Source: a virus (Duplodnaviria > Heunggongvirae > Uroviricota > Caudoviricetes). Taken from it: DNA of 4,595 nucleotides. The notes under the pieces are model-generated. The model was given only the letters and a program-made list of their open reading frames with translations. It was not told the DNA's origin and ran no database searches. The stretch's first letter is position 1. Each line of letters starts with the position of its first letter. The stretch is taken from IMG/VR virus record IMGVR_UViG_2703718811_000012, positions 1 through 4,595 of that record; one strand, written 5' to 3'. The position numbers and the translations under genes are program-made. Shown here piece by piece: positions 2,077-2,617 of this stretch.

Positions 2077-2537
2077 GCGAAATTAATTACCAGGCACTGC
2101 GTGAGGCGGCAGAGAAGGCAATGTATGACGACTGGGGATTTGACTCGGACCTTTTCCATGAGCTGGTAAAACCATCGATTGTGCTGGCACTGCTGGATGA
2201 ACGGGAAAGAAACCAGCAATACATCAAACGCCGCGACCAGGAGAACGAGGATATTGCGCTTACGGTTGGGAAGCTGCGTGTTGAGTTGGAAGCTGCAAAG
2301 AACAACCTTATTGATAGTGAATGCCATGTTACTGAACTGGAAGAAGCGCTACGTGATAAGCAAGCGTTACTTGAAACATCAGAGAAGCGCATAGCAATAC
2401 TGGAAACAATCAAATCCGCTGCGGAAAAACTGGTTCGCTGTAAAGGCCGCTATCACAGTGAGCAGAACTATCGTGCGCTGGCAGCATTGTTTGGCGTAAC
2501 AGTGCCAGATTTACTACCACTGGAGAACAATAAATGA
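2073..2537 (+). CDS. ea22: Ea22-like family protein: conserved N-terminal domain with a divergent coiled-coil C-terminus
   Basis: GTG start at 2073 is 7 nt after AAGGAGG (2059-2065); the longest-ORF start at 2052 lacks an SD. The N-terminus [73 protein letters not shown] matches, from memory, the N-terminus of phage lambda Ea22. The C-terminal ~80 aa is heptad-like and does not match the lambda Ea22 C-terminus as recalled. Confidence 0.75.
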
Positions 2538-2617
2538 GCTGGCCTGAAGCATTTGCAATTGTTGGCATTGCAATATCAATCGCTCTGATTGTTTTTGCAA
2601 TTTGCCGCTGGGGATAA
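2534..2617 (+). CDS. Predicted 27-aa single-pass transmembrane micro-protein ([27 protein letters not shown])
   Basis: ATG at 2534 overlaps the Ea22-like stop (ATGA at 2534-2537). An uninterrupted hydrophobic stretch of about 20 residues is followed by a basic/aromatic CRWG end, and the TAA at 2615-2617 sits immediately before the next gene's start. Short, unsupported by homology. Confidence 0.35.
   Translation: MSWPEAFAIVGIAISIALIVFAICRWG

Follow-up and report, generated by a model that had tools for sequence, protein, structure and literature searches.

The window analysed here, a stretch of 4,595 nucleotides (nt), belongs to the leftward early region of an Escherichia coli lambdoid prophage and harbors, directly behind an Ea22-like gene, an open reading frame (ORF) of 27 codons (Table 1). 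This ORF is a genuine micro-gene of the early operon; it is probably translationally coupled to the gene in front of it, and its product probably acts, from the inner membrane, on a component of the host membrane by a mechanism that we infer. The window is 100% identical to RefSeq NZ_AP042495.1. As it holds 77 ORFs of at least 20 amino acids (aa), an ORF of this size alone means little. Homologous copies were collected from phages and prophages, and two IMG/VR pattern scans, one 5'-anchored and one 3'-anchored, served to build up the set. It comprises 150 copies (80 unique nucleotide sequences), which are always in the same frame, and exactly 27 codons are kept in 72 of the 80 unique sequences. 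Compared loci are labeled L001, L002 etc. and proteins P0041 etc. below.

The sequence-only reading had proposed conservation of the ORF and a bias towards synonymous substitutions as checks, and both gave positive results. With the peptide as query, tblastn matched 95 phage records, 91 of them with at least 80% coverage. The matches include 933W, VT2-Sakai, Stx2 phage I, Min27, BP-4795, YYZ-2008 and Shigella phages as well as the virulent Vequintavirinae phage Av-05. A blastn search with the 84 bases gave 3184 hits, which are distributed over 1436 of 5426 complete E. coli genomes; a single genome has up to seven. Ten loci were read directly; all have the 27-codon form with its ATG overlapping the upstream TGA, and one carries a TAG at codon 3. 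Among 119 copies that were found via their last 24 bases only, 112 proved to be intact, ATG-started 27-codon ORFs, every one of which begins with ATGA. Two more start with GTG and still overlap the TGA, two are only 25 codons long, with a start that lies two codons further downstream and is likewise part of an ATGA, and three are broken (one has TAG at codon 3, and in two codon 2 lacks 1 nt). Homologues with stops or frameshifts, which the same reading had named as speaking against a gene, thus do occur, but they are confined to four of the 80 unique sequences, two with TAG and two with 1-nt deletions. The second TAG copy (L008) sits in a decayed prophage region with several pseudogenes. Variant peptides were also seen, one with an internal 15-residue duplication (P0042) and several stop-loss read-through forms of 36-40 aa, of which P0097 reads into a second small hydrophobic ORF. 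A motif scan and a profile search yielded no homologue in Rac, DLP12, e14, Qin and the right part of CPS-53 of E. coli K-12, which may be a reason why small-protein surveys in K-12 did not report the micro-protein.

The substitution pattern was analyzed in the 72 unique sequences with an intact ORF. For the first, second and third codon position, entropy was 0.27, 0.22 and 0.55, and the pooled pairwise ratio of nonsynonymous to synonymous changes (pN/pS) was 0.35 in the ORF frame versus 1.1-1.9 in four other frames. In the 48 bases left free by the search patterns no stop was observed, whereas 5.5 were expected neutrally (P about 0.003, indicative only). For this expectation the consensus was mutated to the observed divergence and bases fixed by either pattern were excluded. 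Synonymous codon changes numbered 135, compared with 77 in the simulation, and the replacements were on average conservative (mean BLOSUM62 score +0.28). Judged from these sequences, purifying selection across many phages keeps the reading frame, its length, its start context and the character of its amino acids.

That the ORF is not a gene, either because it arose by chance or because the true gene is the 73-aa antisense ORF covering it (window 2410..2631, minus strand), is very improbable. The antisense frame shares its third positions with the micro-ORF, and since these positions coincide it is open in 69 of the 72 variants and reaches a pN/pS of 0.36. Moreover, three records carry antisense 'hypothetical proteins' at the homologous site (AP004402 ORF-38, KJ603229 AHZ95239.1 and CP023531 WP_000481378.1), and the Prokaryotic Genome Annotation Pipeline (PGAP) leaves the site empty in the identical locus. 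However, the antisense ORF has neither a conserved start nor a conserved stop and extends into flanks that vary with the context, and its replacements are non-conservative (mean BLOSUM62 score -0.55). In the sense frame, by contrast, a fixed start, 27 codons, a ribosome-binding site and the stop overlap are found in almost every copy. The annotated antisense ORFs are probably spurious calls.

The start codon had been noted to overlap the Ea22-like stop as ATGA, and this arrangement recurs far beyond the window. In 144 of the 150 copies the upstream stop overlaps the start of the micro-ORF, beside upstream genes that are unrelated to one another. Almost all copies have GGAGG or GGAG 8-10 nt 5' of the ATG, written into differing upstream codons (PQEV or VEDI). 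Only AGC or ACN occurs as codon 2, and serine codons of the TCN type are absent there. This choice keeps the A that completes the upstream TGA, so that the start/stop overlap itself is conserved, which is a signature of translational coupling. A programmed -1 frameshift joining the upstream protein to the peptide was rejected, as a slippery heptamer is missing and the peptide frame of the window has a TAA immediately 5' of the ATG. An RNA element was ruled out by the absence of an Rfam match and an unremarkable fold (z-score -0.3).

The upstream genes encode mosaic proteins of the Ea22/EaA/DUF551 class with at least five unrelated C-terminal modules, among them ...HWMPLPEPPQEVNQ (DUF551), ...NGLISVEDILR, ...NIEQEVNR (933W L0139), ...LKKKGMNQ of Av-05 and the module of the window itself. 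The commonest peptide, MTWPEAFTTVGIAMAVALVVYSICRWG, is found unchanged after three unrelated upstream modules (19, 15 and 6 copies) and precedes 14 kinds of downstream sequence, and the peptide sequence does not co-vary with the type of upstream module. More than 20 downstream contexts were found overall. The commonest is hok/sok (63 of 150), and the DUF4222 junction seen in the window accounts for 14 of 150. In the hok/sok context the micro-ORF ends about 90 nt 5' of the locus (L004 1201-1650, L009, L010); examples are sokW/mokW/hokW in 933W and a hokD-like gene in E. coli SCU-116. These comparisons demonstrate, at the level of sequence, that the micro-gene moves as an independent module between unrelated neighbors.

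The description of the peptide as a single hydrophobic helix with an aromatic and basic C-terminal end was borne out. Residues 6-24 have a Kyte-Doolittle mean of 2.9 over 19 residues, the highest among the 15 ATG-started window ORFs of 20-40 aa (the usual membrane threshold is about 1.6). The peptide opens with MSWPEAF and has an acidic N-terminal end; the helix is followed by C-R-W-G, giving a basic-aromatic C-terminal end. In 51 distinct canonical peptides, M1, W3, P4, E5, A6, F7, G11, A13, A15, A17, L18, Y/F21, I23, C24, R25 and W26 are nearly invariant. Small residues lie on two faces of the helix (11/15 and 13/17), a surface type that is used in helix-helix packing, and these faces presumably serve this purpose. 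By the positive-inside rule, the N-terminus would be outside and the C-terminus inside. A bacterial lipoprotein was considered and rejected, since the peptide deviates from the lipobox [LVI][ASTVI][GAS]C (Cys24 is preceded by F-A-I, consensus Y-S-I, with Ile rather than Gly, Ala or Ser at position -1), the N-region is acidic rather than basic and cleavage would leave three residues only.

A peptide of this kind could also be a membrane-damaging toxin (type I-like, holin-like or of the single-gene lysis type) that oligomerises and collapses the proton-motive force or blocks a cell-wall enzyme, thereby aiding host shut-off or killing. Its size and hydrophobicity are like those of TisB, DinQ, Ibs and ShoB-type toxins, the small residues on two helix faces could permit self-association, and in its commonest context the micro-gene lies directly upstream of hok/sok. 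We nevertheless consider a toxin unlikely. The peptide matches neither Hok/Gef, Ldr or Fst nor any other family of toxins or holins. A consensus scan of both strands from 1800 to 3400, which weak promoters could escape, revealed no sigma-70-like promoter of its own, and no antisense RNA was detected with Rfam. In addition, the copies are located in early accessory operons and not in lysis cassettes, up to seven are present per genome, and adjacency to hok/sok is one context among more than 20. A holin or pinholin was discarded, as the micro-gene lies between the recombination genes and xis/int and elsewhere among ea-type genes or beside hok/sok.

Beyond the close homologues, the peptide belongs to a wider family with the pattern M-[ST]-W-P-[ED]-A-[FL], behind which come a single hydrophobic helix and, in most cases, a basic residue; members have a total length of about 24-50 residues and a start that overlaps or abuts the preceding stop in an operon of small phage genes. 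The window peptide shows all of these features. A profile search of 1.84 billion cluster representatives, with the alignment headed by a 45-aa version called by PGAP, returned 98 hits at E up to 0.001, nearly all of 24-54 aa, and no Pfam or PHROG family exists for these 98 representatives. W3, P4, E5, A6 and F7 are nearly invariant in the wider alignment also, and in most members a basic residue follows the helix. The wider forms comprise a 29-aa Achromobacter group (MSWPEAFFGAVFIICVAWVYVTAIKDKDD), 30-aa forms and forms of 46-50 aa, on contigs of 46-66% G+C (loci L081 9443 on the minus strand, L293, L291, L295 and L088; proteins P0101-P0220). The forms of 46-50 aa, in which the hydrophobic region is longer, may constitute a sub-class of their own; in L293 they adjoin apparent structural or lysis genes, judged by ORF sizes only. 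The distant members that were inspected also overlap the stop of a preceding small gene, and one lies in an Achromobacter-like prophage upstream of excisionase and integrase. A 20-base pattern from the 5' end gave at least 120 listed matches in genome contigs, almost all of them chance matches in unrelated taxa that rarely open a short hydrophobic ORF. As the pattern rarely leads to such an ORF in random genomes, the association of motif and helix is specific to phage DNA.

The wider family also bears on the idea that the peptide has no role and that the act of translation or the DNA itself matters, be it through ribosome coupling or protection or as an 84-base linker for the exchange of lambdoid modules. 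The ORF is located exactly at module junctions, and nucleotide homology to phage PhiR49_2, for instance, starts at its first base. Furthermore, the next gene in the window has its ribosome-binding site in the last codons of the micro-ORF, and genes are tightly packed in the operon. Conservation at the amino-acid level, drift at third positions and conservative replacements speak against this idea, and most contexts have no coupled downstream gene. In addition, WPEAF and the helix persist in phage-like operons of Proteobacteria among members that have no nucleotide similarity to one another across the range of G+C contents given above. Hence, a role of the DNA or of translation alone is improbable.

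Natural fusions to Ea22-like proteins were found as well. The cluster representatives P0161 (143 aa) and P0163 (206 aa) are Ea22-like proteins with the C-terminal module of the window, fused in frame to the peptide. The fusion is caused by one extra A at the junction, which changes AATAAATGA to AATAAAATGA (equivalent to window 2530-2537). It was seen in six contigs from at least three sequencing runs and in two architectures (Logan contigs: L298 1501-1932, L299 and L300). Such fusions are rare, with one to three contigs recorded per cluster and six read for P0161 versus thousands of unfused copies, and they retain the internal ATG and its ribosome-binding site, so that a free peptide is still possible. 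They show that a membrane-anchored Ea22-like protein is tolerated and hint at a functional link between this protein and the peptide. DUF551 proteins of 121 aa and 185 aa were dismissed as fusions; their sequences are without the peptide, and their clustering was an artefact that arose via fragments at contig ends.

The fusions could indicate that the peptide is a membrane partner or tail-anchor for the upstream Ea22/EaA/DUF551-class protein, with coupling giving a fixed proportion of the two. In favor of such an anchor, a gene of this mosaic class precedes the micro-ORF and overlaps its start in nearly every copy. However, the same peptide occurs after three unrelated modules, and the lack of co-variation argues against a specific partnership. 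Both the rarity of the fusions and the internal start that they keep also count against it, and members of the wider family follow other small uncharacterised genes. An anchoring function is unlikely, slightly more so than a toxin.

Annotation and databases were inspected for records of the micro-gene. Short ORFs of this kind had been expected to escape annotation, which holds true here: neither the identical locus NZ_AP042495.1 nor any of the 12 other annotated records of phages and E. coli in which a copy was inspected has a feature at the micro-ORF. Scattered entries exist as 'bacteriophage protein' (E. coli O111 CVM strains), 'Prophage protein', 'putative prophage protein' (E. coli 042) and the hypothetical FORC28_2400, and PGAP sometimes calls a 45-aa N-extended form (WP_423274943.1) by using an upstream out-of-frame ATG. 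Given sufficient length, the frame of the micro-ORF is accepted by gene callers. A collection of 15 billion proteins contains close 27-aa variants but not the exact peptide of the window. The peptide has no match in Pfam, NCBIfam, PHROG or PADLOC at E up to 1 other than chance-level hits to unrelated membrane families. The sequence-only reading had suggested that such a peptide may be a toxin, a division inhibitor or a modulator of membrane proteins; searches with family models revealed no homology to a known toxin, holin or regulator family. Peptide strings had no match in the full-text literature, and a review of phage small proteins contained no comparable membrane example. The micro-gene family is new and unnamed, within a familiar kind, the small phage-encoded membrane peptide.

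How the micro-gene works can be pictured as follows. Ribosomes ending at the upstream TGA would restart at the overlapping ATG, aided by GGAG(G), and each time the early operon is switched on, upon infection or induction, the peptide would be produced as well. The 27-residue product would insert into the inner membrane as a single helix of residues about 6-24, with the acidic WPEAF end in the periplasm and the Cys-Arg-Trp-Gly end at the cytoplasmic face, as the positive-inside rule predicts. In the weakest step, the G11/A15 and A13/A17 faces and the WPEAF cap would pack against a host inner-membrane protein. Packing would modulate this protein in early infection in the manner of bacterial small membrane-protein regulators, without forming pores. 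Termination-reinitiation appears to be the most secure of these steps, followed by single-pass insertion and then by action on a host membrane protein.

Several points weigh against a coupled micro-gene with a host target in the membrane. The sequences behind the selection statistics are related by descent, hence the P value is indicative only, and a pN/pS of 0.35 is moderate rather than strong. With the antisense frame open nearly throughout at an equal pN/pS, periodicity alone cannot tell the two frames apart; what sets them apart is solely the quality of the replacements, together with a start, stop, length and ribosome-binding site that are conserved in the sense frame. The micro-ORF is absent from two published ribosome-profiling lists of enterohemorrhagic E. 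coli, one of which has a 30-aa cut-off. Some members of the wider family have acidic C-termini, which blurs the topology rule, and both the topology and the binding of a host protein are argued purely by analogy. With these points taken into account, the coupled micro-gene with a host membrane target is still the reading that we regard as probable.

A further-reaching proposal is possible, and we put it forward tentatively. The WPEAF peptides might form a large unrecognised family in temperate and some virulent phages of Proteobacteria, at 46-66% G+C, in which the periplasmic cap and the helix would target one conserved machine of the host inner membrane early in infection, for example by blocking superinfection, division or a transporter. 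The overlap and the fusions could add the recruitment of Ea22/EaA/DUF551-class proteins to the membrane.

In the window, the micro-gene is part of a chain of overlapping genes. The gene order in NZ_AP042495.1 is kil, RecT, a Gp157-family gene, two small genes, DUF2737, Ea22-like, DUF4222, a 44-aa gene, xisR and integrase; kil through int are on a single strand throughout, and the array lies next to the host yecN/cmoA locus. The Ea22-like protein matches PF13935 over residues 9-118 (E 3.6e-24, 86.3 bits versus a gathering cut-off of 27) and is a member of this family, and PGAP also names the gene Ea22-like. Its start is probably the GTG at 2073, which overlaps the DUF2737 stop as GTGA, and at 1909 the DUF2737 gene likewise overlaps the gene before it, as ATGA. 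Genes of this operon are therefore typically joined by start/stop overlaps. The ATG of the DUF4222 gene is 4 nt past the stop of the micro-ORF. This gene is the neighbor in the window but not in most homologues, and the junction TAAccacATG recurs in loci L002, L003 and L005. As TGG GGA forms a Shine-Dalgarno-like site for DUF4222, the Ea22-like gene, the micro-ORF and DUF4222 are chained for coupled translation in this context.

Table 1. Position of the micro-gene, its signals and the adjoining genes in the window.
Feature	Position	Strand	Details and basis
Micro-gene	2534..2617	+	ATG, 27 codons, TAA stop; sequence, conservation and selection tests
Ea22-like gene, upstream, coupled to the micro-ORF	2073..2537	+	GTG start, TGA stop 2535-2537; Pfam PF13935 Ead_Ea22
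GGAG, Shine-Dalgarno-like	2522..2525	+	8 nt 5' of the micro-ORF ATG, within the final Ea22-like codons
ATGA start/stop overlap	2534..2537	+	micro-ORF ATG and Ea22-like TGA
Codons 6-24, predicted transmembrane helix AFAIVGIAISIALIVFAIC	2549..2605	+	Kyte-Doolittle mean 2.9
TGGGGA, codons Trp26-Gly27, Shine-Dalgarno-like for the next gene (ATG 2622)	2609..2614	+	sequence
DUF4222 gene, downstream	2622..2864	+	Pfam PF13973, E 6.2e-14; PGAP annotation

Some further observations were made in this region. PGAP marks the Ea22-like gene of the identical locus as a pseudogene (2121-2405 only, 'missing C-terminus'). The ORF is intact from GTG 2073 to TGA 2537, and its alternative C-terminal module recurs in other prophages, e.g. 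L002; it looks like a mosaic variant rather than a dead gene. Between DUF4222 and xis, a 44-aa Cys-rich ORF (MHTAFEFWVRNTFDNRYDLTRDVDGFYCREVVKRMFDVWCHCRG, phrog_3871, no assigned function) is located at 2868-3002, and in locus L094 a 24-aa WPEAF-type peptide stands directly 5' of its homologue. A terminator-like hairpin with eight pairs and a T-rich tail lies on the minus strand at 2656-2675, inside DUF4222; the region contains three terminator-like sites, with 1.7 expected by chance. The 3' end of the integrase overlaps a DUF72-family gene by 17 nt, beside yecN and cmoA (L001 4310-6377; window 3309-4595 and beyond), and this overlap suggests that the prophage integrated within the host gene or at its start.

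The micro-gene lies in the exo-xis/ea accessory region. Genes of this region are reported to affect the choice between lysis and lysogeny in lambda and Stx phages (PMC10834534). At least 26% of complete E. coli genomes harbor the micro-gene, frequently as multiple copies, and the Shiga-toxin phages 933W and VT2-Sakai carry it too, yet standard annotation omits it. A deletion of ea22 or DUF551, or a polar mutation, would also remove or uncouple the peptide, which could confound deletion studies. A family model for the WPEAF micro-proteins would let annotation pipelines recover thousands of copies. Overall, few phage micro-proteins are conserved well enough to merit testing, and this one joins them as a well-supported candidate.

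Comparison with known systems begins with the peptide's own family. Its commonest variant, MTWPEAFTTVGIAMAVALVVYSICRWG, shares 67% identity with the peptide of the window and agrees with it in length and context; database entries of this family carry no function, family model or literature record. Type I toxins including Hok/Gef (Hok, TisB, DinQ, Ibs, ShoB) resemble the micro-protein in size, hydrophobicity and prophage location, and hok/sok is its commonest downstream neighbor. They differ from it in that homology is lacking and in that the micro-gene is translated polycistronically instead of being kept silent, with its own promoter and an antisense RNA not found in the searches described above. 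T4 Imm, P22 SieA, HK97 gp15 and lambda Kil, early phage proteins that block superinfection or division, are likewise accessory, non-structural, encoded early or near the immunity region and located at or near the inner membrane, but they have 47 to more than 150 residues and unrelated sequences. For insertion only, the Pf3 coat protein provides an analogy, with a short acidic N-tail, one helix, a basic-aromatic cytoplasmic end and no signal peptide; it differs as a virion protein of a filamentous phage, with no homology and another role. The functional class that comes closest to the proposed action is that of AcrZ, MgrB, MgtS, KdpF and PmrR. Unlike these, the micro-protein is phage-borne and encoded with a start/stop overlap in an early phage operon, and it has no similarity to them in Pfam or NCBIfam. 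Like them, it has fewer than 50 residues, one hydrophobic helix and no enzymatic potential, and with 27 residues and a hydropathy of 2.9 it falls within the size and single-helix range of small membrane-protein regulators, which act by binding a larger membrane protein.

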